DNA of 64,000 nucleotides from Peptococcaceae bacterium UBA5752 (GCA_002419055.1 DIFI01000021.1:24102-88101), one strand, 5' to 3'. Shown: positions 1,426-25,296, counted from the first letter of the stretch. Numbers and translations are program-made. The notes: generated by a model from the sequence alone, not told the origin.

Positions 1426-2496
1426 ATGCATTTAAAAAACTGTTTGATACTGGCTTGTATTATATTTGGCATAGTATTTCTTCTTGGTTGTGATGCCAAA
1501 ACTGATGAAAATACTATTGCCGACTACTCTAATGAAGAGATAACTGTTTCCGGCCTTGCGGATGAGGATTTTACTGTCACTGTTGCGGACTTGGCCGCAC
1601 TGGACAGCGTTGAGCGCAGCGCTTCCGCCCAGCGCTCAAATGGAGAGGAAGTTTCTATTGACGCGGTCGGCCCCCTGTTGGATACTTTTTTAGCACAGTA
1701 TGGCAAAAGTCAGAGCGATTTTACCAGCATCCGCTTTACAGCTTTCGACAAATATTCCATTACTGTTGACAGTCAAGTGCTGGATAACAGGGAAATTGTG
1801 CTGGCGGTTGCGGATGGAGGCGATGCGCTTTCCAAAGATGACCAGCCGCTGCGGGTGGTGATACCGGGGGAGAGGGCGATGTACTGGGTTCGTCATCTTT
1901 GCCGCATTGATTTTGAAAGCGGCGAGACAACCAGTCAGTGCCGGAAGATGGTCTTTCTTTCCGCGGCAGTACAGACGCTCAAAAGCAGTGATTATGATTA
2001 TAACGGCGTAACGGATCAGGTGATTGCTGTCGGCGATTTGCTTGATGCTTATGCGGACAGTGAAAATGCCGATACGGTATCTCTGATTGCCGCCGACGGT
2101 CTGACAAAATCGGAAACCGCCGCCAACTTCCGTTCCGGGTTGCTTAAATACACGGGTGCGGATGCTCCGCGCTTTGTTGCCGATGAGCTTCCGGAAGGGA
2201 TGCAAATTTATGACTTGTTGATGATCGGTTATGGGCAGATGGAATTTCTAACGTTGGATAAACTGATTTCACTCTATGGAAACGAGGATGGTATTTTATT
2301 CTTTGATGTTACCCAAAAGGCTAACGGAGTAAGCGCGGAAAGTTATGTCTTCACTTGTCAGGATGGCAGCAGCGTTACGCTTCCCGTAGACGAGCTGCAG
2401 GATGCGACACTTTCTTTGGACGAAGAAGGCCGAGTTATTTTGCAACCTGCTAGCGGTGAGAAGGTAATTGACCTGCTGCAAATTGAGGCGAAATAA
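1426..2496 (+). CDS. Secreted lipoprotein with two tandem sulfite-oxidase/YedY-like (Oxidored_molyb-like) domains
   Basis: Lipobox FLLGC after a hydrophobic N-terminus. ATG 1426 is preferred over GTG 1420 given the upstream GGGTGGG. The motif QPLRVVIPGERAMYWVRHLCRIDF resembles the YedY/SO C-terminal strand. No Cys at the Moco-ligand position. Confidence 0.65.
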   Translation: MHLKNCLILACIIFGIVFLLGCDAKTDENTIADYSNEEITVSGLADEDFTVTVADLAALDSVERSASAQRSNGEEVSIDAVGPLLDTFLAQYGKSQSDFTSIRFTAFDKYSITVDSQVLDNREIVLAVADGGDALSKDDQPLRVVIPGERAMYWVRHLCRIDFESGETTSQCRKMVFLSAAVQTLKSSDYDYNGVTDQVIAVGDLLDAYADSENADTVSLIAADGLTKSETAANFRSGLLKYTGADAPRFVADELPEGMQIYDLLMIGYGQMEFLTLDKLISLYGNEDGILFFDVTQKANGVSAESYVFTCQDGSSVTLPVDELQDATLSLDEEGRVILQPASGEKVIDLLQIEAK

Positions 2497-3275
2497 TGAT
2501 AAAAAAACGCTGGCCATGGCTGTTAATAATAATACTGGCAGCGGTAGCAGCATATATCTCAGGCAGGCTGATGCAGCCAGCCTATACCCCTGTAATATAC
2601 ATTGTTGGCGATGTTGAGAAATGTTTAGAAACAAATGATATAGACAAGCTGGGGGATTTGCAACAGGTTGATTTTGATAGCGATACATATCAAGCGGTAA
2701 CACTTGCGGATGTTGTTGCCGCAGCGCAGCCCGCTGCACAAACCAAGAGGGTTCTGATGATTGCGGACGATGGGTTTTCGGTGGAGATAGCAGGGGATAC
2801 GCTGGATGATTGCTGGCTGACCTTTACCCCTAAAGATGGTTGGCGCGTTTTGGCTCCGCTGCATCCGCTCTCCGCCAACGGCACGCATATTTGGCGCATT
2901 GTGGTAGTTGCTGACAGTAGCAGCCAAACTGCTCTTACGGTAACTGCCGGCGGCGAAACGAGCAGCTTTACAATTGGACAATTGTATGCAGGAACAACAA
3001 TCAGCTTCCCTTATCCGGAAGGAACGGCGGAAAAGGCAACGGATGACGTTGTTTATTCCTCTACTGTCTATACCCGTCGTGATTGCCTGACATTGGCGCA
3101 GCTTGGCTGTGATGAGGCCGCTGAAATACAGATAAACGCGGCAAATGGTCAAAGTCTGACTGTGAACTCGTCCGAAACAGGGCTGTTCCAGCTGAACGGT
3201 AATAGTTTGAGTTATATCAATGCAATACAGCGCAAACAAATGGAAGATGTTGATGAAATTGTGGTACTGAAGTAA
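2496..3275 (+). CDS. N-terminally membrane-anchored protein with an SO/YedY-like half domain
   Basis: TAATG overlap with the upstream gene (translational coupling). N-terminal TM WPWLLIIILAAVAAYI. Motifs VTLADVV...VLMIADDGFSVEIAGD...THIWRIVVV. Confidence 0.55.
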   Translation: MIKKRWPWLLIIILAAVAAYISGRLMQPAYTPVIYIVGDVEKCLETNDIDKLGDLQQVDFDSDTYQAVTLADVVAAAQPAAQTKRVLMIADDGFSVEIAGDTLDDCWLTFTPKDGWRVLAPLHPLSANGTHIWRIVVVADSSSQTALTVTAGGETSSFTIGQLYAGTTISFPYPEGTAEKATDDVVYSSTVYTRRDCLTLAQLGCDEAAEIQINAANGQSLTVNSSETGLFQLNGNSLSYINAIQRKQMEDVDEIVVLK

Positions 3276-3351
3276 TTTTTTTACCGTTGTATATTCTTTT
3301 GTGAGAATAGTTTTGTACGCAAATAATAAAAAATAGTTTTTAGGAAAGATA

Positions 3352-5274
3352 ATGAACAAATTTAATTTCAAATCACAATGTTTATATAGTTCTAACATAA
3401 AATTGGTGACAATTGCCTTGCTAATGATTGCATTAATTGTTTTTGCTTGGCCTGCACAGCCAGCTTCGGCGGCTAATGCTTTGACCGTGCAGGTGAGCAA
3501 AGGCGGTGAAATCGCAAAAGTTGCAAGCTACAGCAAAGAAGATCTGGAAGCGCTGGGTACGGTGCAGCAGTATTATTCTTCGGTGGATGCTAACAGTGCA
3601 CCGGTAGTAGTTGTGGCGCGCGGCGTGGCCATATCTACCCTGATGGCCGATTTGGGTATTAATATCGCGGATGCTGAAACTTTGCGCTTTGCTTCCTCTG
3701 ACGGCGGCAACCGCAGCTATAGCGTAGCGACTTATGTTTCCGCAGCACGTTATTATTATCCGCAGATTGTAGACGGTTACGATGCGGATGCCGATGAAAT
3801 TCCGGCATTCGTAGCCGGTGCTGATCAAGAAAAAGTTAAAGTCAGCGCTATGTTGGCATTAGCCAGCTATGAAGGACGCTATCAATCGAAGCCAGACGCT
3901 TCACAAATGAGCTCTGCCAATGGTTTACGATTTTGCTATGGGCAAAGCGCTATTAACGAAGCGGTTTCCCTTAATTACAACAAATATATAAACAGCCTGA
4001 CTATTGTCCTCAAAAGCAGCAGTAGCTATCAACTGCCCGAAGAAGATGAGAGCAGTGGAGAAAGCAGCGGTGATACTGCCATACCCAGTACCGGTATTCC
4101 GGAAGTTCTGGATAGGGAAGGATTGATGGCGGATACGCTGACCATCACTGTGGGCTATTACGGCGGTACATATTATACAAAAAAGGTTTTTACCTTGGAA
4201 GAACTGCAGGCCATGGCCAATGTGCAGCAGGTATATAGCTGTATCGATAATATGCCGGCGGTATGTCTGGATGCAGCGGTTGGCGTGAGGCTAACGGATA
4301 TATTGGCGGCGGCTGGTATAGATGTCAATTCAGTGCAGAGCTTCCACTTTTATTGTGCGGATGTCTCCCGAACTTGGTATACGTCCATGAGTAAAACATA
4401 TTTGCTCGATACGCCGCGTTATTATTATCCTAATTTGCCGAAAAGCTGGGATTATGATGAAGCTAAGGCTATTTCCGGCGCGACTGCCGGTGCGCGGGAG
4501 GTTGATGTTATCTTAGCACTGCAGGATAAATGGCGGCGTTTTGCTATGGAAACGGATTATAGTGATCTTACCGATACAACCCGCTTTCGCTTGCTGTTCG
4601 GCCAAAGTGACGTCTATACCGTGGAGGGCTCCCGTTCCGCCAAATGGGTACATACCATAGCCGTCACGCTGGGCGGATCACCACCCAAGGGTGTTACTCT
4701 TAACGCCTCTGCTTTGGATCTGACAGTTGGCAGTGATTATCAGCTTTCCGCTACAGTGGAAAAGACAGATCAAACCACCGATACCCGCGTCATCTGGAGC
4801 AGCAGTGACGAAGATATTGTTTCCGTAGATAAATCAGGCAATATTACGGTTAAGGGCGACGGTCAAGCTACCGTTACCGCTACTACTGTTTTCGGTGGAT
4901 TGACTGCCACTGTGGTGATAAACGGCAGCACCGATGCGGCTGACAGTACCGCCACCGGCAGCAGTACCAATACCAATGGCAGTAACACAACCGGCGGCAG
5001 TAATTCTACGGAGGGCAAGGAGGATACCGATTCTGCTGATGCGGCGCAGACCGAAACCGGCGGCGTATATCGTATTTCGGTAGGTGGCTCGGATACAGCG
5101 AATAGTGAGGCAGGTGTTCAAAGGTGGCGGGACAGTGAAATGGCTGCCAACGCGGTAGCGCTTCCGGATATAGAAACGGATAGTCCTTTGATGAGGATTA
5201 CATTAATTGCAATACTGGCTTTATTTATAGTCGGTATTCTTGGCAGAATAATTATTTATCGTTTGGAGGTATGA
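3352..5274 (+). CDS. Secreted 640-aa surface protein: two RYYYP-type domains, Big_2 domain, S/T/G/N-rich linker, C-terminal TM anchor
   Basis: Signal peptide ending ASA/AN. Motifs ARYYYPQ and PRYYYPNL. Big_2-like VTLNASALDLTVGSDYQLSA...VTATTVFGGLTATVVI. C-terminal LIAILALFIVGILGRIIIYRLEV. Confidence 0.75.
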   Translation: MNKFNFKSQCLYSSNIKLVTIALLMIALIVFAWPAQPASAANALTVQVSKGGEIAKVASYSKEDLEALGTVQQYYSSVDANSAPVVVVARGVAISTLMADLGINIADAETLRFASSDGGNRSYSVATYVSAARYYYPQIVDGYDADADEIPAFVAGADQEKVKVSAMLALASYEGRYQSKPDASQMSSANGLRFCYGQSAINEAVSLNYNKYINSLTIVLKSSSSYQLPEEDESSGESSGDTAIPSTGIPEVLDREGLMADTLTITVGYYGGTYYTKKVFTLEELQAMANVQQVYSCIDNMPAVCLDAAVGVRLTDILAAAGIDVNSVQSFHFYCADVSRTWYTSMSKTYLLDTPRYYYPNLPKSWDYDEAKAISGATAGAREVDVILALQDKWRRFAMETDYSDLTDTTRFRLLFGQSDVYTVEGSRSAKWVHTIAVTLGGSPPKGVTLNASALDLTVGSDYQLSATVEKTDQTTDTRVIWSSSDEDIVSVDKSGNITVKGDGQATVTATTVFGGLTATVVINGSTDAADSTATGSSTNTNGSNTTGGSNSTEGKEDTDSADAAQTETGGVYRISVGGSDTANSEAGVQRWRDSEMAANAVALPDIETDSPLMRITLIAILALFIVGILGRIIIYRLEV

Positions 5275-5275
5275 C

Positions 5276-5908
5276 ATGTTTGCGGAAAATTTAAGTGTTG
5301 CCCTACGGGCAGTGGCAGAAAACCTGCGTAGTCCGGTGATGTGTATTCTGCTGCTGTTGATCATAATAGCGGTAGTAATGTTTGGCTCCATGATAGCGGA
5401 GATTTTTACCGAAAGAATGCGGCTCAAGGCAAAGATGCCCCGATTGGTGGATGATATTAAAGACGAAGATAAAGAGTTGGCGGATACTATCGAAAAAAGC
5501 GGATTGCTCAAGCGTCAGAAGAATGCCTTATTGGAATTGATAATTCATCCGGAATTGACACCTGTGATGCGTGAAGCTTTAGCCAGACGTCTGATTTTTG
5601 AGGAGCAGAACCATTATGACCGGATCGTTAAAATCACTGATTTGATTTCGCGGCTTGGCCCGATGCTGGGTCTGCTTGGTACGCTGATCCCCTTGGGGCC
5701 GGGGCTGATTGCCTTAGGACAGGGAGATACATATTCTTTATCTCAATCCCTGCTTACTGCCTTTGATACAACCATTGCAGGTTTGGCCTCAGCCGTACTG
5801 GCTTTTGTGATATCCGCTATCCGTAGGAGCTGGTACGAAAACTATATGACGATGCTCGAAGCTTTGATGGAATGTATATTGGATAGGGAGGCCGGCCATG
5901 CAAAATAG
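5276..5908 (+). CDS. MotA/TolQ/ExbB-family proton-channel protein (3 TM)
   Basis: GGAGGT RBS. The start lies 1 nt after the upstream stop. Family signature LGPMLGLLGTLIPLGPGLIALGQGD...LLTAFDTTIAGLASAV. Topology is TM1, cytoplasmic loop, TM2-TM3. Confidence 0.75.
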   Translation: MFAENLSVALRAVAENLRSPVMCILLLLIIIAVVMFGSMIAEIFTERMRLKAKMPRLVDDIKDEDKELADTIEKSGLLKRQKNALLELIIHPELTPVMREALARRLIFEEQNHYDRIVKITDLISRLGPMLGLLGTLIPLGPGLIALGQGDTYSLSQSLLTAFDTTIAGLASAVLAFVISAIRRSWYENYMTMLEALMECILDREAGHAK

Positions 5909-6221
5909 TTTAAGAGGCGGCGGCTTGCGAAGCGGCCGTACGCAAAGTGATTTTAATCCTATGGATGGTTTGGCTAATTTGGCCGACTGTATGCTGGTTT
6001 TGGCCTGTGGCCTGCTGCTTTCGTTGATTGTCAGCTGGAATCTGGATATCGCGGTGGACGAAACCGTGGCAAGTCCCAACGAAAGCGCTGTTAGCGAGGT
6101 AGATGGCGTGGAGAATAGCGATCTAAATTCCATAGATGAGAACAGCGGTTATAAGGAAATGGGAAAGGTTTATAAAGACCCAAAGACCGGGCAGCTTTAT
6201 ATGGTAATAGATGATAAATGA
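5898..6221 (+). CDS. ExbD/TolR-like single-pass protein with short acidic C-terminal domain
   Basis: Overlaps the exbB-like stop (ATGCAAAAT at 5898, with GGGAGG upstream). FNPMDGLANLADCMLVLACGLLLSLIV resembles the ExbD N-terminus/TM. The periplasmic part is only ~55 aa and D/E-rich. Confidence 0.55.
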   Translation: MQNSLRGGGLRSGRTQSDFNPMDGLANLADCMLVLACGLLLSLIVSWNLDIAVDETVASPNESAVSEVDGVENSDLNSIDENSGYKEMGKVYKDPKTGQLYMVIDDK

Positions 6222-6240
6222 TAAAGGGGGAAGGGATATT

Positions 6241-8229
6241 ATGAAAAAGATCAAGGGTATATTACTGGTATTATTGACATTGTCGCTGGTGCTTTTTGTA
6301 GCTCTGCCGGCTATGGCAATTGACCCGGTGGAGCCCAGCGACACTCTGGAAGTCTGCCTTAAAACGGCGGACGGTACAGTAACGCTGCATACTTACACAT
6401 TGGCCGAGATGGAGGCCCTAGCAGACGGGGAGGATATCTGCTATTCCGGTATTGATGCCATGCCATGCACGGTAAAAACCGTGGCCAGCGGCGTTTATAT
6501 CGAGGATCTTTTGGATGATGTAGCGCAGTATACCACTATGGACGTATGGGATTTTTCTAAGCTGCGTTTCACATCTACCGATGGCGCGACAGGCATCTTT
6601 ACCGAAGACGATCTCTTCTGCGACCGCTATTATTTTGCTGCACTTCACGAAGAAAGCGGCGGGCTAAATGAAGATGGTTTAGTAGATTACGATTATGGAG
6701 AGGGCGAATTGGTTCAGCCAATGCTTTCCATCAGTGCCGAGCAGGGTCGCCGTCCGATGCCGTCAGAATTCCGCGATGATTATAACCCGGAGCGCTATAC
6801 CATTCTTTTTGGTATAACTGAGGATGAAGTAGAAAACGCTACCCAGCGCGTTTCTCAGTACAAGCGCGGCGTATATAAAATGGTTATTGATCTGGGCAAT
6901 GTATCCGCGCCTCAAGTGGCTGTAACGGGCATTGCTCTTGATAGAACCAGCGACAAGGTTTATACCGGCAAATCGATCCAGCTTACAGCTATCATTAGTC
7001 CGAGTGATGCGACTAATACGGGGGTTACCTGGAGCAGCAGTGATCAGTCGGTAGCGAAGGTATCTTCCACAGGGGTTGTCACAGGGGTTGCCACAGGAAC
7101 AGTTACTATCATCGCTACAGCTGCCGGAAATACCGCATTTAGTGCATCCTGTAACGTAACCGTATCCAACCGGAGCGTATCGGTTTCGGGCGTTTCTTTA
7201 AGCCAAAGCAGCCTGTCATTGGGAGTAGGCGGTAAAAAAGAGCTGACCGCCACCGTACTGCCCGGCAATGCCGACGAGCGCGACGTGACTTGGTTAAGCA
7301 GCAATGAAAAAGTTGCAACTGTCGATGACGGTATGATCACTGCCGTTGCCGTGGGTCAGGCTACTATAACCGTCGAGACCTCTGACGGCGGTTACACCGC
7401 TGTATGCACGGTTACCGTCACAAATGAGGCGATTGCCGTCACCGGAGTGACGCTGAACCGTACTGCCGTATCACTAGCCAAAGGCAGCAGCTTCCAGCTT
7501 GTTGCCAATTTCAGTCCGGAGGGCGCTTCCAATATGGCTGTTGTTTGGAGCAGCAGCGCACCGGGCGTTGTTGCAGTGGATACCAATGGCCTACTTACTG
7601 CAAAGAATATCGGAACCTCGACTATTACCGTTCTGACAAGTGAAGGCAGCTTTACCGCGCAATGTCTGGTAAAGGTTGCGGATTCGGTCGAAGCTTTCAG
7701 TGATATATCGGGTAATTGGGCGAAGACGTATATTGAAAGCATGGTGGATGCAGGATTTATTAGCGGCTATACTGACGGCAGCTTCCGTCCTATGGCTAAC
7801 ATTACCCGTGCTGAATTCATAAGCATACTCATCCGCATCCTTCAAAGCGCCAAGGGTGAAACATTGCAAACAGGGCATGTATTTAACGATACGTCAGCAC
7901 ATTGGGCTAAGGACTATATTTCCACCGCGGTAGCACTTTCGATTACTTCCGGCTACGGCAACGGTAATTTTGGCCCCAATGACCCAATCACCCGCGAGCA
8001 GATAGCAGTAATGCTGACCAAGGCTGCGGATTCAAGCGGCAGCACCACCGCCACCAGCTTCACCGATGTAGCTAAGATTTCCTCCTGGGCGGTTTCTTCT
8101 GTTGCTTATGCTGCGGAACAGGGATGGATCAGTGGCTACAGCAATGGCAGCTTTGGTCCGCAAAGACAAGCCACCAGAGCAGAAGTATGTGCGTTACTCT
8201 GGCGTTTTTATCAACAGATCAATGGTTAA
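6241..8229 (+). CDS. SLH-anchored surface protein: RYYYP-type domain, 4x Big_2, 3x SLH
   Basis: ATG 6241 after GGGGGAAGGG. Signal peptide ...ALPAMA. Four repeats of the type VTGIALDRTS...VTWSSSD...ATGTVTI. Three C-terminal SLH motifs (FSDISGNWAKTYIE.., FNDTSAHWAKDYI.., FTDVAKISSWAV..). Confidence 0.85.
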   Translation: MKKIKGILLVLLTLSLVLFVALPAMAIDPVEPSDTLEVCLKTADGTVTLHTYTLAEMEALADGEDICYSGIDAMPCTVKTVASGVYIEDLLDDVAQYTTMDVWDFSKLRFTSTDGATGIFTEDDLFCDRYYFAALHEESGGLNEDGLVDYDYGEGELVQPMLSISAEQGRRPMPSEFRDDYNPERYTILFGITEDEVENATQRVSQYKRGVYKMVIDLGNVSAPQVAVTGIALDRTSDKVYTGKSIQLTAIISPSDATNTGVTWSSSDQSVAKVSSTGVVTGVATGTVTIIATAAGNTAFSASCNVTVSNRSVSVSGVSLSQSSLSLGVGGKKELTATVLPGNADERDVTWLSSNEKVATVDDGMITAVAVGQATITVETSDGGYTAVCTVTVTNEAIAVTGVTLNRTAVSLAKGSSFQLVANFSPEGASNMAVVWSSSAPGVVAVDTNGLLTAKNIGTSTITVLTSEGSFTAQCLVKVADSVEAFSDISGNWAKTYIESMVDAGFISGYTDGSFRPMANITRAEFISILIRILQSAKGETLQTGHVFNDTSAHWAKDYISTAVALSITSGYGNGNFGPNDPITREQIAVMLTKAADSSGSTTATSFTDVAKISSWAVSSVAYAAEQGWISGYSNGSFGPQRQATRAEVCALLWRFYQQING

Positions 8230-8259: not shown

Positions 8260-9687
8260 ATGAAGAAGTTAAAAAAGACGGGCCTGTTTTTCTGCGTCTT
8301 GGTGGCAATTTTGATCCCTACTATGTCCTGGGCGGGAGCAACAAGTAGTCTCGATATTACCGGCCCCTGTTACGAGATGCTTTCACCCACCAACAGCGCT
8401 ACTGAGATGGCAGTTACCTGGTGGGATGCGCTGGAGGTAAACACAGCCTCTGTGCAATACAGCACCAGTTCGAACTTTAGCAGTGGTGTTTTCAGTGTTG
8501 CAGCTACCTTATCCAAAAACGATACCACTAACGGATATAGCGCTTTTGCGGCAACGATGACCAATCTTACCGCTGATACTACTTATTATTACCGCGTTGG
8601 TAATGTCACCGCTTGGAGCGATACCAATAGTTTTACAACCGGTGATGCAGCCTCGGCCAGCAGCCTTTCCATCATGTATCTGGGCGATGCCCAGTATGCA
8701 AGCTATAATGCCGCAGTAGAGGAGTATGCTACCTGGGGTAGTTTGATCAATGGCGCATATACAAAATTTCCCAATCTTGATTTTGCGTTAATGGGCGGTG
8801 ATTTAGTTAGTCTAGGTCAGTCGGCTGTCGATTGGCAGCGTTTCTACAATAATGCTAGTCCGGTATTTTCCAAATTGCCTGTATTAGCAGTGCCCGGCAA
8901 CCATGAAAGCAATGCAACTTCCGGCAAGCCGGAGCTGTTCCTGAAACTGTTCGATTTGCCGACCAACGGCCCCACAGGTTTTGAAGAGGAATTCTATTCC
9001 TATGATTACGGAAACTGTCATATCGTTTGTTTGAGCAGCAGCATATTCCTCGATGAGCAATTAGCAGCCGGCACTATGACCGAAGCTGACTTCGACACGA
9101 TTAAGCAGTGGATTGCCAGTGATTTGGCTGATTCCGATGCAACCTGGAAGATTGTGGTCATGCACCATCCTGCTTATGCGGTAGTCAGCGACGACACTGC
9201 TGTTGATGTATTGGCGAACTGGGCGCCGGTTTTTGTCAATGCACAGGTAGACTTGGTCTTATGTGGTCATCAGCATGTTTATATGCGTACCGAAGCGATT
9301 AAGGGCGTTACCTATGTGATGGGCGTATCCGGCAGCAAGTTTTATGCGCCGGCTACTGTGTCCTATTCTGAGTGTATGATCGGCTATACCAGCAATTATG
9401 AAATCATTAACGCTGATAGCAACAGTTTGACGGTAACGGCTTATGATTCTACTGGTACCAGTTTGGATACAGTGACGATTAAACCAAAAAATAGGACCAT
9501 CACGCCGACTTGGCCTGAGGATATTGTCGGTGACCTCAACGGCGACGGGTCTATTACCTCTGCCGATGTAACACTACTGATTAGCGCGATTTTAACCAAT
9601 GCTGCTTATTCCACTGTCATGGATGTAAATGATGATGGAAAAGTAAACATCTGTGACGCTCATCAGCTTAGCTTAAGCTTACTATAA
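8260..9687 (+). CDS. Purple-acid-phosphatase-like metallophosphoesterase with C-terminal dockerin
   Basis: AAGGAG RBS and a signal peptide. Fn3-like PAP N-domain (TTYYYRVGN). Metallophos motifs GDAQY, GGDLVS, GNHE, MHHPAY, CGHQH. C-terminal DLNGDGSITSADVTLL and DVNDDGKVNICDAHQL dockerin repeats. Confidence 0.85.
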   Translation: MKKLKKTGLFFCVLVAILIPTMSWAGATSSLDITGPCYEMLSPTNSATEMAVTWWDALEVNTASVQYSTSSNFSSGVFSVAATLSKNDTTNGYSAFAATMTNLTADTTYYYRVGNVTAWSDTNSFTTGDAASASSLSIMYLGDAQYASYNAAVEEYATWGSLINGAYTKFPNLDFALMGGDLVSLGQSAVDWQRFYNNASPVFSKLPVLAVPGNHESNATSGKPELFLKLFDLPTNGPTGFEEEFYSYDYGNCHIVCLSSSIFLDEQLAAGTMTEADFDTIKQWIASDLADSDATWKIVVMHHPAYAVVSDDTAVDVLANWAPVFVNAQVDLVLCGHQHVYMRTEAIKGVTYVMGVSGSKFYAPATVSYSECMIGYTSNYEIINADSNSLTVTAYDSTGTSLDTVTIKPKNRTITPTWPEDIVGDLNGDGSITSADVTLLISAILTNAAYSTVMDVNDDGKVNICDAHQLSLSLL

Positions 9688-9704: not shown

Positions 9705-11402
9705 ATGCGAGTGAGTGATAAACTAAAAATCTTCGTTTTACTGTCTGTAATCTTTTGTTTGATATTGCTGCCGACTGTATGCTTGGCCGCCGGCACCAAA
9801 GTGTCGGATGCCGTCAATAATATATTCGTCTATGCTGACGATGCCACCGGCGCTCAGGTTTTACTTAAAGTCATTCCATTATCTACCCTTAAGTCAATGT
9901 CACATGGTAGTGATGGTACAGCCAATACCGACTATTACGGTTCTTTTCTTGACGCCTATAAAACGCCGACTTACTTAGAAGGGCAGGGCGTTACCATACC
10001 TGAGCTGCTTACCTATGTCAAAAAGAACTCTTTGGTGGCAGATGTTGGTTCGCTGACTTATGCCGGATCGGATATACTATATTTTACTTGCTGCGACGGC
10101 GCTTCCGTTAATTTTACCTATGATGCGCTGTATGGTACTGAATTAAACCCGGTGAACCGCTATTATTATCCAGCCTTATATGATTACTGGGACAGTGAAA
10201 ACGTTGAAGTGCCGGATGCTGATGAGGCTACAGTTTTGGCAAGCGGCATTTCGGCACCGGTTTATCTTGCAACCGTATCCAAGGGCGGACGGGTATTTGC
10301 CAGCGCCGGCGGCACAAATATTTCCTCTTATGTTACAGCTAACGATGGCGTGGTCAGCGGTTGCCTGGCCGGTCAACTTACGGATGAAGATGCGCTGCGT
10401 TTAATCTTTCCGCAGACTGCCAGCGATATTCAAAGTAGTACCGATACATTAAGTTTTATCAAAAAATGGGTGTATAAGGTCCGGCTGAAAACAGCTGAGA
10501 CTTCACCGATTGCCTCGCTTGGTACGATCAGCAATCCCACATGTACCTATACCCTGGACGGCACCACACTCACTATCACCATGAGTTGTGAGGATGCAAA
10601 TGCTTCTCTCTATTATTCAACCATCGGTGGTTATACCGCCACGCCGGTAAACCTCTATACCGAGCCGATAACCGTGGAAAATTACGATACCAGCAAGCCA
10701 TTCACCATCAGCGTGATGGCGGTACGGGAAGGTTATGTGAACAGTACTGCTATATCCGCAAGCTCCGCCAATTATACCGATGGCGAGGGCGCGCCCAGTT
10801 TCACCTATGCTTTAACTTCATCCGATGCTACGCCCACGGTTGGCACCGCTTTTGATCTTTCGGTGACCCTTGCTGCCGATAAAGATTATACGCTTTACGG
10901 TGCCGAATACCGCGTTTCGGTACCGGCAGCTTATACAGTCAACAGCGTTACTCTCGGCACCGGCTGGCAATATGGTACAGCCACTTACGCTAATGAAGCG
11001 ACAATTGTCACATTTACCTATCTGAATACTACAGGGACTGCTGAAACCGCAACTACTGCCGTGCCGGTGGGGTCAATTAATTTGATTCCGGTTACGGCAG
11101 GTGATACTTCCGTTACGGTCAGTGAAGCGATTGTAACCAAAAGCGATGCTACCGCTTACACCAATATTACAGCCGCAGATTCAAGTTTCACGGTTGAGAG
11201 CAATATCACGCTCGGCGATGTGGATAGTGACAGTTATATCACTATGGGCGATGCCCTGCAAGTATGTAAGACTGTGGCTAAGGTAGTGACTCTAAACGAT
11301 GATCAGAAAAAAGCGGCTGATGTAGACAAAGACGGCTATATCACCATGAGCGACGCACTACTCATCTGCAAATATGTAGCCAAAGTTATCAGCGAATTTT
11401 AG
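9705..11402 (+). CDS. Secreted adaptor-like protein: RYYYP-type domain, Fn3/CHB_HEX_C-like, cohesin-like domain, C-terminal dockerin
   Basis: RBS GGAAGGGGGA and a signal peptide. NRYYYPALYD. Cohesin-like FDLSVTLAADKDYTLYGAEYRVSVPAAY...VTFTYLNTTGTAE. Dockerin-like DVDSDSYITMGDALQVCK and DVDKDGYITMSDALLICK. Confidence 0.8.
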   Translation: MRVSDKLKIFVLLSVIFCLILLPTVCLAAGTKVSDAVNNIFVYADDATGAQVLLKVIPLSTLKSMSHGSDGTANTDYYGSFLDAYKTPTYLEGQGVTIPELLTYVKKNSLVADVGSLTYAGSDILYFTCCDGASVNFTYDALYGTELNPVNRYYYPALYDYWDSENVEVPDADEATVLASGISAPVYLATVSKGGRVFASAGGTNISSYVTANDGVVSGCLAGQLTDEDALRLIFPQTASDIQSSTDTLSFIKKWVYKVRLKTAETSPIASLGTISNPTCTYTLDGTTLTITMSCEDANASLYYSTIGGYTATPVNLYTEPITVENYDTSKPFTISVMAVREGYVNSTAISASSANYTDGEGAPSFTYALTSSDATPTVGTAFDLSVTLAADKDYTLYGAEYRVSVPAAYTVNSVTLGTGWQYGTATYANEATIVTFTYLNTTGTAETATTAVPVGSINLIPVTAGDTSVTVSEAIVTKSDATAYTNITAADSSFTVESNITLGDVDSDSYITMGDALQVCKTVAKVVTLNDDQKKAADVDKDGYITMSDALLICKYVAKVISEF

Positions 11403-19356: not shown

Positions 19357-19384
19357 ATGCAGTAAGTAAGTTAGGAGAATACAA

Positions 19385-20722
19385 ATGAAACGATTTACAA
19401 TTACTATTATCGTTTGCATATTGATCTTTGCTTTGAGTATCTCCACCGCTTTGGCTGTTGATAACAGCAGAACATATTCTTTTCAACTCACCTCCAATGG
19501 CAGCAGTACTGCTGCCATTGGAGTGGGGGATATGATTACGGTGAAGTTTACTCTGGCGGCAGACAACAGCTATGCTTTGTATGCGATGCAGAATGAGATT
19601 AAGTATGACAGCCGCTATTTGCAATATGTTGATGGAAGCCTTAGTATGACCTCCGGTTTTAATTCCGGCTTTCGGGATATGGAGGATGGCATCAATAAAC
19701 TGGTGCTGATGAATTATGTTTCCGATACAGCAGAGGGAGAAACCATAAACTCCAGTGTCGTGGTGGGAACCTTCCAGTTGAAGGCCATCGCTAATGGAAC
19801 TTCGACTGTCAGCAACGAGGATTATTATTGCACAACCAAAACCGGTGCAAATAATTACACTGCTACCGCCAGTGATCTTATTGTCAACATTAAATCTTCC
19901 GGCGGCGGTGGCGGCGGTAGTAGTGTCACTTATTACACCATCAACGCCAGCGCCGGCGAGGGTGGCAGCATATCGCCTTCCGGCAGCGTCAGCGTAGCTC
20001 AGGACGGTTCACAAACTTTCACTATAAACCCCAACTATAGATATATTATAGAAGACGTACAGGTAGATGGCAAAAGCGTCGGCGACGTCAGCACATATGC
20101 CTTCTCCGCTGTCACTGCCAACCACACCATAAAAGCAACGTTCATTGCGGGAGAAGAGGAGCCAAACCTCACCGATCAATTCACCGACCTTGTCCCCGGC
20201 GCCTGGTATATAAACGGCATCAATTATGTTTTGCAGGCTGGACTGTTTAACGGTACCTCGGCAACCAGATTTAGTCCTGATGCCAATATGACGAGATCTA
20301 TGCTGGTAACGGTATTGTGGCGTTTAGACGGCACGCCTGACGCAACAGTAGACACCATCTTTAATGATGTGGCAGACGGTCTCTGGTACAGCGACGCTAT
20401 CGAATGGGCTGCGGCCAATAATATCGTCAACGGCTATGGCAACGGTAGGTTCGGTACCAATGACAGCATCACGCGCGAACAGATGGCGGTAATCTTATAT
20501 AACTATGCCAAAATTAAAGGTTACGATGTCAGCCAAACCACTTCACTCAGCAAATACACCGACACCGGCGATATTTCCGATTGGGCCAGCACAGCTATGG
20601 CCTGGGCCAATGCTACCGGCCTTGTCAACGGACGCACCGCTACAACTCTCGCTCCCGGCGGTACTGCCACAAGAGCTGAAGTTGCTACGATCTTAATGCG
20701 CTTTATCGAATATTACGTTTAA
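19385..20722 (+). CDS. Anchoring scaffoldin-like protein: cohesin-like domain + InlB-B-repeat-like middle domain + 3x SLH
   Basis: AGGAG RBS and a signal peptide. Cohesin-like MITVKFTLAADNSYALYAMQNEIKYDSRYLQYVDGS. Gly8 linker. Three SLH motifs (FTDLVPGAWYING.., FNDVADGLWYSDA.., YTDTGDISDWAST..). Confidence 0.85.
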   Translation: MKRFTITIIVCILIFALSISTALAVDNSRTYSFQLTSNGSSTAAIGVGDMITVKFTLAADNSYALYAMQNEIKYDSRYLQYVDGSLSMTSGFNSGFRDMEDGINKLVLMNYVSDTAEGETINSSVVVGTFQLKAIANGTSTVSNEDYYCTTKTGANNYTATASDLIVNIKSSGGGGGGSSVTYYTINASAGEGGSISPSGSVSVAQDGSQTFTINPNYRYIIEDVQVDGKSVGDVSTYAFSAVTANHTIKATFIAGEEEPNLTDQFTDLVPGAWYINGINYVLQAGLFNGTSATRFSPDANMTRSMLVTVLWRLDGTPDATVDTIFNDVADGLWYSDAIEWAAANNIVNGYGNGRFGTNDSITREQMAVILYNYAKIKGYDVSQTTSLSKYTDTGDISDWASTAMAWANATGLVNGRTATTLAPGGTATRAEVATILMRFIEYYV

Positions 20723-20874: not shown

Positions 20875-20907
20875 AAGGCCTGATATCTTTAAAATATCAG
20901 GCCTTTT
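20875..20907 (+). terminator. Rho-independent terminator (AGGCCTGATAT...ATATCAGGCCT TTTTT)
   Basis: Perfect 11-bp inverted repeat plus a T-run, downstream of 19385..20722. Confidence 0.55.
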
Positions 20908-20950
20908 TGGTGGGGCTATACAAAAGTCAACCAGTGACCTTGCATGTCAA
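20906..20950 (-). pseudogene. Degenerate copy of the 3' half of tRNA-Val (anticodon loop to CCA end)
   Basis: TGGTGGGGCTA...CCAGTGACCT...TGACATG here, versus TGGTGGGGCTAACTGGGCTCGAACCAGTGACCTCTACGATGTCAA in the intact gene at 22385. Same orientation. Confidence 0.4.
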
Positions 20951-21011
20951 ACAAGTATCTAAACAGCTGGGCTATAAGTTCGCAACAAATTTCAGACAAA
21001 GCCGCGCTTTT

Positions 21012-21515: not shown

Positions 21516-21660
21516 CTCCTGATAAAAATGTATGCCAAACTAATAAAAAAAATTTTAATATTTTATTTACTTTCCTTCCTGTAGCTTAGCATCTTTATTG
21601 GCGCGGATGTATTTGCAACATCATTGCGGTGTCTTCATATACTGTATCGAGGTGGTCAAT

Positions 21661-22341
21661 ATGCAGGCATCAGATTTAATTGAAGCGATGGAGTTATCGG
21701 CTGTCGCATACCGTAAGGTTCAGCCAGATTCCTTTGGCGGCTCTCTTATCACGATAGATGATCCAAAAACCGATATTCAATGCTACCTGCGCAAAAGAGA
21801 CGGCTGCCTTAGCATCACATTTAGGGGATCAAACTCCGGTAAGGACTGGAAAACGAACCTTGCTTTCGGACAAAAAACTATACCATATGGAAACAGCGCA
21901 TCAAAAATAAGAGTACATTACGGATTCATCGAGGCTTATAAATCTCATGCCGTGAGAGATGTCATCAACGATATAATATCCGACGACATTCATCAAGTAA
22001 AGATAACCGGTCATTCACAAGGCGCGGCGCTGGCCGTTTTGTGCGCAGTGGATCTGGAATATCACTACCCCGACAGGGACTTTGAGGTAATACTGTTCGG
22101 CGCACCGCGCGTGGGAAACCGTGCTTTCCAGAAATCCTATAACAAGAGATTATTCAAAACCATGCGCATCGAAAACGGCAACGATATCGTAACCAAGATT
22201 CCGTTTGCCTGCATGGGATATCGCCATGTCGGCATGGGTGTACATATCGGCAAACCGAAGATTCTGGGCGTCATCTCATTTAATGACCACTATCCTCAAG
22301 CCTATTACAAAAATCTTTTTAAACGAATTGAACTAAGATAA
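21661..22341 (+). CDS. Lipase class 3 / alpha-beta hydrolase
   Basis: ITGHSQGAALAVL nucleophile elbow. ATG 21661 (MQASDL) inside the longer ORF 21598. Confidence 0.7.
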   Translation: MQASDLIEAMELSAVAYRKVQPDSFGGSLITIDDPKTDIQCYLRKRDGCLSITFRGSNSGKDWKTNLAFGQKTIPYGNSASKIRVHYGFIEAYKSHAVRDVINDIISDDIHQVKITGHSQGAALAVLCAVDLEYHYPDRDFEVILFGAPRVGNRAFQKSYNKRLFKTMRIENGNDIVTKIPFACMGYRHVGMGVHIGKPKILGVISFNDHYPQAYYKNLFKRIELR

Positions 22342-22354
22342 ATACAACAAAATA

Positions 22355-22384
22355 CCTGCTATCTTATGGATAGCAGGTATTTTT

Positions 22385-22385
<1 letters not shown>
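22355..22385 (+). terminator. Rho-independent terminator (ACCTGCTATC...GATAGCAGGT + T7)
   Basis: 10-bp inverted repeat followed by TTTTTT, abutting the tRNA 3' end. Confidence 0.55.
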
Positions 22386-22461
<76 letters not shown>

Positions 22462-22585
22462 GCGACAAACTATATTATGCCTGAAAAAAGACAATAAGTC
22501 AATAATATTTTCAATAAAAATGTAGTAAAAAAGAAAGAAAACTTAAATAAGCAGCCTTTTTAGATTAATTATTTAGTGGTTAGTA

Positions 22586-22846
22586 CTATTCATCTGTCTG
22601 ATCATCATCGGGGAAGATTGGTTTACTGTTGCGGATATCATTTAAAATTGCCAGTATCCGCTGTTTATCTTCGGCAAAGCCAAAAACGCGCCCCCAACAG
22701 CCTTCGGTTAGTTCAAAGAGGTTGCCGTAAGCGCTGTCATCATTGCTTTGGATACGGAAGCTAATGCCTTCGTCGGTTAAGCATTGCTCAAGCAGCGCCG
22801 CCTCAAAGTTGTTTCCAATATCGGCTATTTTTATCACTTTAGACAT
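22586..22846 (-). CDS. Hypothetical 86-aa acidic protein
   Basis: GAAGGAG RBS 8 nt upstream. Lies immediately downstream of ftcD on the same strand. Confidence 0.45.
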   Translation of the reverse strand: MSKVIKIADIGNNFEAALLEQCLTDEGISFRIQSNDDSAYGNLFELTEGCWGRVFGFAEDKQRILAILNDIRNSKPIFPDDDQTDE

Positions 22847-22850
22847 AATT

Positions 22851-23780
22851 TTACTCCTTCATTAATAAACCATGTTCAACAAGTTGGGATTCGAGTATTT
22901 GACGTGGTGAAAAGTTGGTCATTCTCATCAACTGCCAATCACACCCGGCAAGGGATGCTTGCGGCGGCAAGCCGATAATCTCCGTTTCGGCGACTGCCGT
23001 ATTATAAGCGGCAGCCAGTTGACTGACACGCTCGAATACCTGTACGGGGGAAGTAATGCGATAATCCAACAAATTGCAGGATACCTGTGCGATACCGCGG
23101 GAATGCAAATCGACGGCTATCGATTTTACCTCTGCCATGCCGTTAGAGGAAAAGCGGATGGCTTTAGCGATAGCGCGGGCTGCCTCCATATCGTAACGGT
23201 TGAGATTGAAGTTGATGGCAATCAGGAAGAAGCGGCTGCCGATTACCGCTGCACCAAACGTCGGATGGGGGTGTCGGCGGCCGAAATCGGGACGCCATTC
23301 TTGGGTCTGCAGTTTAGCGCTCAAGCCCTCAAAATTACCTCGCCGCAGTTCTGAAAGATTGTCACGGCCGCTAATCAGAGCAGCTTGGCCGTATAGATAA
23401 ACAGGTAGTTGCAGTTCCTTGGCTACATTTTCCCCAAAATTGCGGGCGACAATACCGCAATATTCCAGATCAGCACCGGCAACGGGTATAAAAGGTGTGA
23501 CATCAACGGCGCCGATCCGCGGATGTGCGCCTCGGTGTGTGTTGAGATCAAAATGTTCTAAAGCAAATACAAATCCGTTGAACAGCGCCTCCGTTATACT
23601 TTCCGGTTTGCCGGCCAACGTATAAACGCTGCGGTTGTGGTCATAATCGCTACTGTAATCAAGCAAGCCAACGCCGCTGATTTTGTCCATAGTTACCGCC
23701 AATTTTTCTAAGAGACGAAGATCGCGTCCTTCGCTGAAATTAGGGACCGATTCAATTAGTGGCGGTGTTTTAATCATCAT
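22851..23780 (-). CDS. ftcD: Glutamate formimidoyltransferase (formiminotransferase domain only)
   Basis: N-terminal IESVPNFSEGRD is the classic FtcD formiminotransferase start. Length 309 aa with no cyclodeaminase domain. Confidence 0.8.
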   Translation of the reverse strand: MMIKTPPLIESVPNFSEGRDLRLLEKLAVTMDKISGVGLLDYSSDYDHNRSVYTLAGKPESITEALFNGFVFALEHFDLNTHRGAHPRIGAVDVTPFIPVAGADLEYCGIVARNFGENVAKELQLPVYLYGQAALISGRDNLSELRRGNFEGLSAKLQTQEWRPDFGRRHPHPTFGAAVIGSRFFLIAINFNLNRYDMEAARAIAKAIRFSSNGMAEVKSIAVDLHSRGIAQVSCNLLDYRITSPVQVFERVSQLAAAYNTAVAETEIIGLPPQASLAGCDWQLMRMTNFSPRQILESQLVEHGLLMKE

Positions 23781-23913
23781 TTATCCTCTAAATAGAAATT
23801 CGATAACAATTTAAATATATTATATATATTATTTAATGTCAAATTAGCTTTATTAAATATAGGAAAATATGTTATAATTTACTGAAATTTAATTCAGAAA
23901 GCAGGGGAAAAAA

Positions 23914-25296
23914 TTGAAAATTTGCTTTCAAAAACTAATTGTTATAATGATAATTACATCATTGGTAATTGCGTGCGGCAGTGCAGTATTAGCAGCCGAT
24001 ATCACTGTTACCATCAGCGGCGACGGTGTTACTACGCAACAAAGCTTTACCGGTGAGCAATTGGCGGCAATGACTGATCAAATACAGCAGCATTATTATT
24101 CCTCAATTAATAACTGGCCCACCAATAAAAATGTTTATGCGAAAGGCATCTCGCTTTCATATTTGTTGCAGCTGTCGGGTATCAAGGATGAGGCTACCTT
24201 GATTAAGATCACCAGCACCGACGGATATTACAAAACTTTTACCGTCTCCGAGTTGCTAGATTCCGAGCGTTACAGCTACAGTGACGGTAGAGCTACAGAA
24301 GTGCCGGTAATTTTAGGCTTGCAAAGCAGCGATAGTTCTTTCGCATCTATGACGGACGATCAGGCCCCGGTATTGGTAATAGGACAGCGCGCGGCAACAG
24401 AACAAACATTTCCTTGGTTTATTAAAAACGTTAGTACTATAGAAGTCAGCGCTGATACGTTAGCGCGGTGGCCGCAAGCAACATATGAGATTAACGATGC
24501 TGCAAACGGTTATCAGCTGGAGCTGAATCATAGCAATTTTGATACGGTTAAGCTCTATTATACAACTGACAGCACTACCCCGTCTGTTGAGAGTAATATG
24601 TATAATATCAGCACTACCTATTGGCAACCGGATCTGATCGTGCCGCTGCAGCTTACCGCCGGTACGGTTGTCAAAGTTATCGCCATCGGCCCCGGCAAGC
24701 CGGACAGTGAAGTTGTGACCATCAACTTGCCGACAACATCTGCCGGAACAGACCTGTCGTTTAGCGATGTGGCAAAAAACAGCTGGTATTATGATGCAGT
24801 TGATTATGTTAGTAACAAGGGATTATTCCAAGGCACATCGATAACAACATTTTCGCCCATGGCTCCAATGACACGCGCCATGTTTGTAACGGTACTTTAT
24901 CGGCTTTCCGGTGAGATATATTCGTCTACTACGGCCAAATTTAGCGATGTAGAATCCGGCAGTTGGTATGCCGATGCCGTTACCTGGGCTTCCGAAAAGG
25001 GAATAGTCAACGGTTACGGTAATGGTACATTCAGACCGTTAAATGCGGTGACCAGGGAGCAGATGGCTTTGATAATGTTCAATTATCTTAAATGCATTGG
25101 CGAAGGACCGCAGGGAGCTTGGATGATCAACCTAAATTACCCGGACAAATCTGCTATCAGTGATTGGGCTTTTGAAGCGGTAACGTATTGTACAATGAGA
25201 GGTTTGCTCAGCGGACGCAGTAACGGCAATTTTGATCCGCAGGGAACGGCCAACAGAGCGGAAGTGGCGACAGTGATGATGCGCTTTGACAAATAA
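23914..25296 (+). CDS. SLH-anchored (3x SLH) surface protein with N-terminal RYYYP-type domain
   Basis: TTG start (ATG 23947 is an alternative). Signal-like N-terminus. HYYSSINNWP...GISLSYLLQLSGI...ITSTDGYY...ERYSYS. Three SLH motifs at the C-terminus. Confidence 0.75.
   Translation: MKICFQKLIVIMIITSLVIACGSAVLAADITVTISGDGVTTQQSFTGEQLAAMTDQIQQHYYSSINNWPTNKNVYAKGISLSYLLQLSGIKDEATLIKITSTDGYYKTFTVSELLDSERYSYSDGRATEVPVILGLQSSDSSFASMTDDQAPVLVIGQRAATEQTFPWFIKNVSTIEVSADTLARWPQATYEINDAANGYQLELNHSNFDTVKLYYTTDSTTPSVESNMYNISTTYWQPDLIVPLQLTAGTVVKVIAIGPGKPDSEVVTINLPTTSAGTDLSFSDVAKNSWYYDAVDYVSNKGLFQGTSITTFSPMAPMTRAMFVTVLYRLSGEIYSSTTAKFSDVESGSWYADAVTWASEKGIVNGYGNGTFRPLNAVTREQMALIMFNYLKCIGEGPQGAWMINLNYPDKSAISDWAFEAVTYCTMRGLLSGRSNGNFDPQGTANRAEVATVMMRFDK

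Follow-up and report, generated by a model that had tools for sequence, protein, structure and literature searches.

A recurrent cysteine-less domain of the sulfite oxidase fold in surface proteins of a Peptococcaceae gene cluster and its possible part in molybdenum or tungsten cofactor acquisition

Gene content of the locus

We analysed a stretch of 64,000 nucleotides from Peptococcaceae bacterium UBA5752 (GCA_002419055.1 DIFI01000021.1:24102-88101), which in its full length is called the window throughout. Between positions 1420 and 25296, the plus strand carries a run of genes that includes those of six proteins, P1, P2, P3, P6, P8 and P10, sharing a recurrent extracytoplasmic domain. We regard this domain with high confidence as a binding module of the SUOX fold, the fold of the sulfite oxidase (SO) family (PF00174). 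The contig derives from a JGI metagenome (3300002219, SCADCLC), and the nearest genome is that of Peptococcaceae bacterium UBA4068, with a domain identity of 91%.

The genes and features of the locus are listed in Table 1. The parts of a cohesin-dockerin system are all present, with dockerins on P8 and on the phosphatase and cohesins in the 2630-aa surface protein and in the anchoring protein that follows it, the latter together with SLH domains; the pairing is predicted from the domains, and the 2630-aa protein is presumed to be the scaffold for P8 and the phosphatase. At its N terminus, this large protein starts with two near-identical repeats of ~135 aa (TTAPTMTSV.P.EG...YAYTI.R), and at its C terminus there is a dockerin-like EF-hand segment below the Pfam threshold; family matches are absent over most of its length. 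P2 is a short version of a type of ~490 aa, whose members in relatives have a nucleotide pyrophosphatase/phosphodiesterase domain at their C-terminal end. A class-3 lipase gene and a tRNA gene set P10 apart from the rest of the cluster. The C-terminal coding sequence of the DUF6320 protein found just 5' of the cluster also lies 5' of the cluster in the closest relative (locus L040).

Table 1. Genes and features of the window, with positions counted from its first nucleotide
Feature	Position	Strand	Description
DUF6320 protein	104-811		zinc-ribbon membrane protein just 5' of the cluster
Two adjacent perfect palindromes	1340-1381	+	CGTTATA-N10-TATAACG (1340-1363); AATTGAC-N4-GTCAATT (about 1364-1381)
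P1	1426-2496	+	lipoprotein; one full cysteine-less SUOX/PF00174 domain, aa 37-171 (about 1528-1932)
P1, small partial repeats	aa ~176-271 and ~274-357	+	after the full domain
P2	2496-3275	+	membrane-anchored; N-terminal partial SUOX-like repeat (about 2574-2930)
P3	3352-5274	+	type-I membrane protein; signal peptide; copy 1 3466-4020 (domain E 2e-58), copy 2 4123-4680 (domain E 8e-80)
P3, continued	about 4690-4905 and about 5113-5271	+	Big_2 (about 4690-4905); low-complexity linker; juxtamembrane motif Q.WR..EM...A..L; C-terminal transmembrane helix (about 5113-5271)
MotA/ExbB/TolQ-family proton-channel protein	5276-5908	+	PF01618 E 3e-11; PDB MotA 6e-6, ExbB 0.045
DUF2149 protein	5898-6221	+	PF09919 E 8e-12; single transmembrane helix with conserved Asp (N.vDaMLVfACGL)
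P6	6211-8229	+	S-layer-anchored; copy 6331-6903 (E 2e-43); 3 Big_2 (1.6e-45); 3 SLH (4e-45)
Purple-acid-phosphatase-like metallophosphoesterase	8260-9687	+	Pur_ac_phosph_N 2e-16; Metallophos 2e-16; C-terminal dockerin (Dockerin_1 2e-10)
P8	9705-11402	+	copy 9810-10502 with insertions (E 8e-28); C-terminal dockerin (Dockerin_1 1.3e-10)
Cohesin surface protein, 2630 aa	11464-19356	+	two cohesins (Cohesin 9e-17, 2 stretches)
Anchoring protein	19385-20722	+	cohesin (6e-6) and 3 SLH (3e-33)
Class-3 lipase	21598-22341
tRNA gene	22388-22461	-
P10	23914-25296	+	copy 23992-24456 (E 5e-40); Fn3_assoc/CHB_HEX_C_1 (Fn3_assoc 1.4e-10); 3 SLH (2.5e-38)
Separate energy-coupling factor (ECF) module	53563-57696		PF09819 S component; fused double ATPase; CbiQ; DUF169 protein

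Extent and copies of the recurrent domain

An earlier note on this DNA had described a recurrent extracytoplasmic domain of about 100 aa in seven proteins. The domain is real: a family hidden Markov model (HMM) recovered five full-length copies with domain E-values of 8e-28 to 8e-80, and pairwise BLASTP comparisons among the copies gave values of 1e-18 to 7e-3, the only non-significant pairs being P6a/P8a and P10a/P8a. Its length and its distribution had to be corrected. The copies align over ~187 columns and the domain measures ~185 aa, the segments first delimited having spanned its N-terminal half only; six proteins carry a copy, and the five full-length HMM copies lie in four of them, P3, P6, P8 and P10. 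The motifs by which the domain had been recognised, among them YS.[IV]D and a near-invariant RYYYP, are genuine and are conserved across 211 public family domains. In this alignment, Y40 is conserved in 95%, S/T41 in 98%, D/N44 in 95%, G56 in 99%, D82 in 95% and R98 in 94% of the domains, and further conserved positions are I43, P47, V57, the R98-Y-Y-Y-P102 motif, V126, A131, R138, R155, G159-Q160 and K173.

The assignment of two copies to P1 and one to P2 held in part. The first copy in P1 (P1a) matches PF00174 with an E-value of 7e-10 and 39.2 bits (cut-off 24), and the second turned out to be a partial, divergent repeat of the N-terminal subdomain. In P2, a repeat of this partial and divergent kind makes up the N-terminal half, and the C-terminal half is unrelated. 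When the recurrent domain (RY) family was compared by hhalign, P1-type profiles reached probabilities of 94-97% (best 97.3%, E 2e-11), the rest of P1 reached 73% and P2a 79.7%, with HMM E-values of 3e-4 to 0.03 for the latter two (3e-4 for P2a with the P1-small HMM). In the structural model of P1 (predicted local distance difference test score, pLDDT, 91), residues 176-271 repeat the strand and helix order of the first domain, and residues 274-357 form a further small module. Among homologues, the P2a profile matches both small P1 modules and the centre of the P1-small proteins. In our reading, the remainder of P1 and the first half of P2 do not amount to full copies and instead repeat the N-terminal subdomain in part. 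The reported fusion partners Big_2, SLH and dockerin were found, as were the lipoprotein and the membrane protein; a fusion to cohesin was not, the family HMM finding no copy in the cohesin proteins. PF26918 appears in precomputed annotations and is a different domain, Ig_Eae.

Fold, missing cysteine and export route

Structure comparison bore out the SO/YedY-like fold that had been suggested for the domain. It was needed because a PDB sequence search with the family profile was too weak, giving only E-values of 0.17-1.1. The AlphaFold2 model of the P3b copy (pLDDT 81) matched in Foldseek only molybdenum cofactor (Moco) domains of the sulfite oxidase family, the top 32 matches being SO, SorA, nitrate reductase (NR), SorT, SoxC and YedY. 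The model of P1 scored 15.3 against PruR, 14.8 against SorA and 14.3 against SO. At the sequence level, P3b reached 22.2-22.5 bits against PF00174, just under the cut-off of 24, and the other window copies except P1 gave no match; among 67 diverse family members, 14 matched PF00174 at E<1e-3, the best at 4e-19.

The molybdenum-ligating cysteine is not conserved, as had been proposed. The 211-domain alignment has no conserved cysteine column, the highest value being 27% in an unrelated column. In a low-confidence profile alignment (very low hhalign probability; indicative only), Cys146 of MsrP falls on the variable x of YSxID, where the 211 domains have F in 52, S in 51, Y in 22, T in 21, A in 16 and C in 7 cases. 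The loop of the window P1 that is equivalent to the Mo-ligand loop also lacks a cysteine. A subgroup of membrane-anchored P1-small proteins (L023, L033, L034, L027 and L019; for example, L034 126-689) has an N-C-x3-C-G insert followed by an acidic or Ser-rich stretch, which sits in the loop aligning with the Mo-ligand Cys loop of SoxC and SO; this insert is absent from the window P1 and from the P1-small proteins of the core operon described below.

The export signals are of the Sec or lipoprotein type across the family, including the window proteins. Among 176 family proteins, only three had a twin-arginine (RR) motif, and among 47 P1 proteins one had it, outside the signal. Moco enzymes are exported folded via the twin-arginine translocation (Tat) pathway, and the signals found here are therefore incompatible with the export of a molybdoenzyme loaded in the cytoplasm. 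A solved precedent for such a protein is PruR, a periplasmic pterin binder with a cysteine-less SUOX fold, which binds tetrahydromonapterin and controls a cyclic di-GMP enzyme, and all characterised SUOX enzymes need the cysteine (PMC13259868).

The fold match, the missing cysteine and Sec export support the earlier interpretation of the domain as a non-catalytic binding module, as does the PruR precedent, the binding itself being predicted. Polar residues are strongly conserved although the family is very divergent (mean identity ~23-30%), which also points to a specific site. With ~185 aa and no molybdenum-ligating cysteine, the domain is very probably a binding module of the SUOX (PF00174) fold; exported unfolded through Sec, it would bind its ligand reversibly in the manner of PruR, rather than act as a molybdoenzyme. 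It represents a new, large Firmicute branch of cysteine-less SUOX-fold binding proteins, a kind already known.

Family size, hosts and the conserved gene system

A profile search of 1.84 billion cluster representatives yielded 1275 proteins (50%-identity representatives) at E<=1e-3, 752 of them at E<=1e-10. The family proteins are 220 to 2809 aa long and contain 1 to 7 copies of the domain. In 67 representatives, the partner domains were Big_2 (27), SLH (16), Shr-like_HID (15), CHB_HEX_C_1 (13), Fn3_assoc (12), MG2 (7), Metallophos (3), CWB2 (2) and Dockerin (2); Shr-like_HID was also found in neighbours of the Pelotomaculum and Syntrophomonas wolfei clusters. The hosts that have a name belong to the Firmicutes and are strict anaerobes: Pelotomaculum, Desulfoscipio, Syntrophomonas, Ca. 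Formimonas warabiya, Clostridium ragsdalei, Anaerovorax, Petroclostridium, Dethiobacter, Ruminococcus bicirculans and Pseudobutyrivibrio. The profile defines a large surface-domain family of more than 1200 50%-identity clusters outside Pfam's reach, and would correct the label 'molybdopterin-dependent oxidoreductase' that P1-type proteins commonly receive.

To describe the genes around the domain, we used related loci gathered with a P3b-type alignment, so that the set is biased towards P3-type genes. Across 47 Firmicute loci, we found P1-type PF00174 proteins in 37, DUF2149 in 35, the ExbB-like protein in 34, the purple-acid phosphatase in 22, an ECF S component (PF09819) in 20 and P2-type genes in 12; full-length P2 homologues match PF01663/PF01676. 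A separate gene-family clustering of 46 loci placed ECF ATPases in 24 and EcfT/CbiQ in 19. The ExbB-like gene directly follows the P3-type gene in 31 of the 40 loci with downstream sequence. Features common to the P3-type proteins are a domain copy close to the membrane, Big_2, a low-complexity linker, a Q-P-W-R-v-x-E-M-s-x-x-A-v-x-L motif and a C-terminal helix, and the tail motif is conserved in 45 homologues. The single helix of DUF2149 has an invariant Asp within N.vDaMLVfACGL in 35 sequences; no match of this protein to ExbD was found in Pfam or PDB, and its helix is one that we take to resemble that of ExbD/TolR. In the iron-regulated hmu heme operon of Bacteroidota, HmuU is a MotA/ExbB protein and HmuV a DUF2149 protein (PMC11681262). 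We propose that P3 is the partner of the ExbB/ExbD-like pair.

The S components of the related loci share an invariant G-H-R-V-C-C-x-p-C motif with one His and three Cys (for example, L018 12115-12717 and L007 5800-6381, and 18 other loci). Vitamin S components do not usually have such a motif, which suggests that a thiophilic centre is ligated directly. No account of this gene system was found in the literature, of which our coverage is incomplete, and as far as can be told it is undescribed.

Association with molybdenum and tungsten cofactor genes

Several independent observations agree in associating the gene system with the molybdenum and tungsten cofactors (Moco and Tuco). RF01055, the Moco/Tuco riboswitch, was detected in seven loci from five lineages with scores of 42-71 bits (gathering threshold 36). 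On the same strand, it lies 140-162 nt upstream of a P3-type gene in L009, L024 and L025, and in R. bicirculans (L044) 92 nt upstream of the gene for a 1804-aa two-copy protein that heads a P3/ExbB/DUF2149/P1 operon; in Dethiobacter (L010) it stands at the operon start, in L046 within the cluster and in L032 nearby. Both aptamer forms are represented, the Moco type with the P3 stem and the Tuco type without it (classes according to PMC2408646). Promoter-like hexamers are found upstream of the aptamers in L024 and L009, and a simple terminator scan of L024, L009 and L044 found nothing.

Genes of cofactor metabolism also accompany the clusters. MoeA adjoins the cluster in C. ragsdalei, and a TrmO_N+FmdE protein is a neighbour in Syntrophomonas. 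Fusions of a MobA/MocA-like nucleoside triphosphate transferase with a ModE-type helix-turn-helix (HTH) domain (NTP_transf_3 + HTH_1; TIGR00637 E 3e-5) occur inside or beside the clusters of L046 (5162-6115) and L011 (2911-3846), and may be a cofactor-responsive regulator-enzyme.

In addition, homologues of the S component (224 matches) led to a core operon that lacks the surface layer and has the gene order P1-large, P1-small, S, P2, P1-small, EcfA, EcfA', EcfT. It is present in Natranaerobius, Anaerosalibacter, a Thermoanaerobacterales metagenome-assembled genome (MAG), Wukongibacter and a Delongbacteria MAG; the S component, EcfA/A' and EcfT occur in all five, and MobB follows the operon in three. 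The Natranaerobius operon (CP001034.1 340894-357445) has at its sides the genes of a ModE-type regulator, of a small TOBE-domain (Mop-like) protein and of a binding-protein ATP-binding cassette (ABC) transporter whose Pfam families, PBP_like_2 and SBP_bac_11, would fit a Tup/Mod-type system, and the Anaerosalibacter operon adjoins a molybdopterin oxidoreductase. In the diderm Delongbacteria, the gene of a TonB-dependent receptor (Plug + OMP_b-brl_3; L058 4984-6927) stands immediately upstream of the P1/S/P2/ECF/MobB core operon, and this receptor may fill the role that the surface domains and the ExbB/DUF2149 pair would have in S-layer Firmicutes.

Taken together, these observations make it probable that the system is part of molybdenum- or tungsten-linked acquisition. 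The full length of the domain, the PruR precedent and this operon context, which ties the domain to Mo/W cofactor metabolism, are what the earlier note missed.

Tuco-type Moco RNAs were once noted upstream of 'putative sulphite oxidase' genes of S. wolfei as an unexplained exception (Regulski et al. 2008). The S. wolfei locus in our set (L053, CP000448.1 2261144-2282247) comprises a phosphatase, an SLH protein, P1, P2, a Cu_amine_oxidN1+Big_2 protein and a Shr-like_HID protein. No RF01055 match was found within 10 kb of it, so the genes of that study must lie elsewhere in the genome, and their identity with this locus is unproven.

A proposed capture and relay layer and its rivals

The best explanation overall, which we hold just short of calling it likely, is that the domains form a surface capture and relay layer for the uptake of a molybdopterin-type cofactor. 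Copies are displayed at several depths of the envelope: on the presumed cohesin scaffold through the dockerin of P8, on the S-layer or cell wall through the SLH domains of P6 and P10, on the long stalk of P3 with its C-terminal transmembrane anchor, and close to the membrane on the lipoprotein P1 and the anchored P2. They may bind the ligand reversibly and pass it inward, as the capture-and-relay layer of a conserved uptake system. The ExbB/ExbD-like proton-driven pair probably acts on the anchor of P3 and would drive release or hand-over. In relatives, the system would feed a dedicated ECF importer and would be repressed or tuned by the Moco/Tuco riboswitches, which may act as an off-switch. 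The likeliest ligand would be a molybdopterin-type cofactor from the anoxic surroundings, as Moco, Tuco, a dinucleotide or a precursor form; the phosphodiesterase and the phosphatase may trim nucleotide or phosphate groups from it, and MobA, MobB and MoeA may reprocess it inside the cell.

A pterin cofactor rather than an oxyanion is, overall, our tentative choice of ligand. We favour it because the fold is the Moco-binding fold, of which PruR shows that a cysteine-less version binds pterins; because a nucleotide pyrophosphatase/phosphodiesterase is an obligatory core gene; because ECF importers are vitamin-type and the diderm version has a TonB-dependent receptor; because MobA and MobB are neighbours and the S component has its invariant H..CC..C motif; and because the Shr-like hemoprotein-interacting domains in 15 of 67 members recall the extraction of cofactors from proteins. 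More doubtful is the wider proposition that the domains are the surface layer of a first bacterial Mo/W-cofactor salvage system, with S-layer capture, trimming, motor-driven hand-over via P3 and ECF import. Moco, Tuco or their dinucleotide forms would then come from neighbouring cells in anoxic communities, the motor would do TonB-like work by way of P3, with its C-terminal anchor, in an organism that has no outer-membrane receptor, and the ECF importer with the His/Cys-rich S component would take the cofactor in.

A number of points count against uptake of the cofactor. The ligand is wholly inferred, as are its binding and transport, and the function of the window cluster is inferred from homologous clusters: the window has no RF01055 at the gathering threshold and none in 780-1450 at E<=10, and its cluster lacks ECF genes of the cluster-associated GHRVCC type. 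The separate ECF module of the window was rejected as a partner, its S component being unrelated to the GHRVCC family. The riboswitch is present in only 7 of about 47 loci, and regulation alone is no proof of uptake because Moco riboswitches also precede genes of Moco-using enzymes. The neighbouring MoeA and possible Tup/Mod-type transporter fit oxyanion handling as well as cofactor salvage, and elsewhere it is with the uptake of heme that the ExbB/DUF2149 pair and Shr-like domains are associated. We know of no bacterial Moco/Tuco importer, and Moco is a very labile compound. In addition, PruR reportedly has a pocket in which Moco would not fit (PMC13259868).

The main rival is free tungstate or molybdate. 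These, or a thio-oxyanion, would be captured at the surface by the domains and the purple-acid-phosphatase-like proteins and concentrated in sulfidic, metal-poor habitats before import; what the ECF system takes in through its Cys-rich S component would be a metal species and not a pterin. Riboswitch control would suit this explanation, as would the neighbouring MoeA, small TOBE-domain protein, ModE-type regulator and possible Tup/Mod-type ABC transporter, the conserved Arg, Lys and Tyr residues of the domain (R98, R138, R155, K173 and the YYY run) and the H..CC..C motif, which suits thiophilic metal species. Purple acid phosphatases bind tungstate and molybdate tightly, and as syntrophs and acetogens, the hosts need much W and Mo for formate dehydrogenase and AOR. 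However, Natranaerobius already has a possible Tup/Mod-type binding-protein ABC transporter beside the operon, and an oxyanion of ~160-250 Da would need neither a TonB-dependent receptor nor a nucleotide phosphodiesterase; to our knowledge, no oxyanion-binding protein has the SUOX fold and no ECF importer takes oxyanions. We consider this explanation unlikely, if deserving of serious attention. A further possibility is that another small pterin or redox-active metabolite is taken up or sensed, as in PruR and with no direct part in Mo/W supply; monapterin, neopterin and compounds of syntrophic partners that are related to folate or methanopterin would be examples. Among the conserved gene families of 46 loci, no partner of the DcpA or sensor-kinase type was seen; these loci instead hold an importer, Moco/Tuco riboswitches and MobB/MobA/MoeA neighbours, and the domain is ~45 residues longer than PruR, aligning over 125-132 residues with the Moco domains of SO and over 117-121 with PruR; we regard this possibility as improbable.

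Equally improbable in our view is a general structural or adhesive module of the S-layer or surface that has no small-molecule ligand, the molybdenum neighbours then concerning only the P1/P2/ECF core and the surface proteins being passengers with no relation to it. The domain is indeed joined to many generic surface modules (Big_2, SLH, MG2, CWB2 and dockerin), and the window cluster has neither riboswitch nor ECF core; yet its polar residues are strongly conserved despite the divergence of the family, riboswitches stand directly upstream of domain-bearing genes and not of core genes only (L009, L024, L025 and L044), and the surface-protein genes tightly adjoin ExbB/DUF2149 and P1/P2. The remaining two explanations we think very improbable. 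Acquisition of heme or another tetrapyrrole, with the domains acting like NEAT domains in a heme relay, draws on the HmuU/HmuV type of the ExbB/DUF2149 pair and on Shr-like_HID in 15 of 67 family proteins and in the Pelotomaculum and S. wolfei neighbours. It is opposed by the pterin/Moco fold, the Moco/Tuco riboswitches and the molybdenum genes nearby, and no CobN/HmuS-like gene and no NEAT domain was found among the gene families conserved across the 46 loci, in which Fur sites were not searched for. Finally, the proteins might be genuine extracellular Moco/Tuco enzymes with Ser, Asp or Tyr in place of the Cys ligand, their expression being coupled to cofactor supply by the riboswitch. Near-invariant S/T41 and D/N44 beside the position of the lost Cys, the N-C-x3-C-G insert in the Mo-ligand-type loop of some P1-small homologues and the S. 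wolfei RNAs of Regulski et al. (2008) would accord with this. Against it stand the use of Sec rather than Tat signals throughout, clusters that lack a redox partner domain or gene, the presence of up to 7 copies per protein fused to non-enzymatic modules, and the requirement for Cys in characterised SUOX enzymes (PMC13259868).

Comparison with known systems

PruR of Agrobacterium, Vibrio and Klebsiella (PDB 7KOS, 7KP2 and 7RKB) is, like the domain described here, secreted and of a cysteine-less SUOX fold. It is a ~170-aa single-domain proteobacterial protein whose gene forms a two-gene operon with that of a DcpA or DTB signalling protein, whereas the domain studied here is found in surface proteins of Firmicutes that have several domains and reach 2800 aa, together with an importer, a proton-driven motor and phosphoesterases, and no DcpA/DTB-type regulator was seen among the conserved gene families of the 46 loci. 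In sequence, the surface domain has no detectable similarity to PruR, and that of P1-type proteins is marginal (7kom E 0.008, 7kos E 1.3). PruR contacts the pterin with a Trp in place of the Cys and with Tyr104; the aligned position in our domain is variable (F/S/Y/T/A/W). Compared with the PF00174 Moco domains of SO, SorA, SoxC, nitrate reductase and YedY/MsrP, the domain lacks the Mo-ligand Cys, the Tat signal and any dimerisation or redox partner domain, and it occurs in multiple copies with cell-surface anchoring modules.

The Isd/Shr NEAT heme relay resembles the arrangement proposed here in its logic only, in that one small repeated domain stands at different depths of the wall and the chain ends at a membrane importer. 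It differs in fold, in being regulated by iron and not by a Moco/Tuco riboswitch, and in using a binding-protein ABC importer rather than an ECF one, and it lacks the added ExbB/ExbD-like motor. With TonB-ExbB-ExbD and HmuU/HmuV, the system shares a MotA_ExbB protein and a single-helix partner with a transmembrane Asp, encoded beside a membrane-anchored protein with a long linker; unlike TonB, P3 is anchored C-terminally, carries SUOX-fold domains at its other end and has no TonB_C domain. No TonB_C or Plug domain was found in the window cluster and no TonB-dependent receptor gene in the loci of S-layer Firmicutes, a Plug receptor occurring only in L058. In relatives, the PF09819 S component, EcfA, EcfA', EcfT/CbiQ and a cofactor riboswitch recall ECF importers such as RibU, ThiT, FolT, CbrT and CbiMNQO. 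The invariant GHRVCCxxC of the S component sets them apart from these, as do operons that always include extracytoplasmic SUOX-fold proteins and a phosphodiesterase; such ECF genes are absent from the window cluster.

Should the salvage of cofactor hold, it would explain 'orphan molybdoenzyme' genomes, in which Moco biosynthesis and Mo transporters are missing; molybdoenzyme genes accompanied by neither a full Moco pathway nor a known Mo transporter occur in hundreds of genomes (PMC6147048). The only demonstrated exchange of the cofactor is that of nematodes with the bacteria on which they feed (PMC9793310). The riboswitch-controlled ECF system with extracytoplasmic parts of the Moco fold is a concrete, testable candidate importer for the cofactor or for Mo/W itself. 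It bears on the W/Mo supply of anaerobes, in which syntrophs and acetogens depend on W/Mo formate dehydrogenases in sulfidic habitats, and it would widen the supposed role of ExbB/ExbD-like motors, which in S-layer Firmicutes would be coupled to a C-terminally anchored surface protein.

Upstream palindromes and neighbouring genes

A TTTACA-N17-TATAAT-like promoter immediately precedes the two palindromes (Table 1), which occupy the stretch 40-80 nt ahead of P1. Their pattern is unique in the window and was matched by none of 100 shuffles; from the sequence we tentatively consider them a candidate operator. The first of them is one that we take to resemble the E. coli ModE operator. Neither is conserved in L040, the closest relative (91% identical), which has a different palindrome at the corresponding place, and the first is absent from all other related loci as well. 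Because this palindrome is not conserved, its reading as a ModE operator was set aside.

Further genes with possible metal functions were noted near the clusters. On the same contig upstream of the window (L001, 131-1714), there are genes of a Nitro_FeMo-Co-family protein (NifX/NafY-like, weak match) and of a CobW-type metallochaperone GTPase, about 6-8 kb upstream of P1, and in L029 a CobW gene and DUF364/DUF4213 'heavy-metal chelation' genes lie near the cluster.

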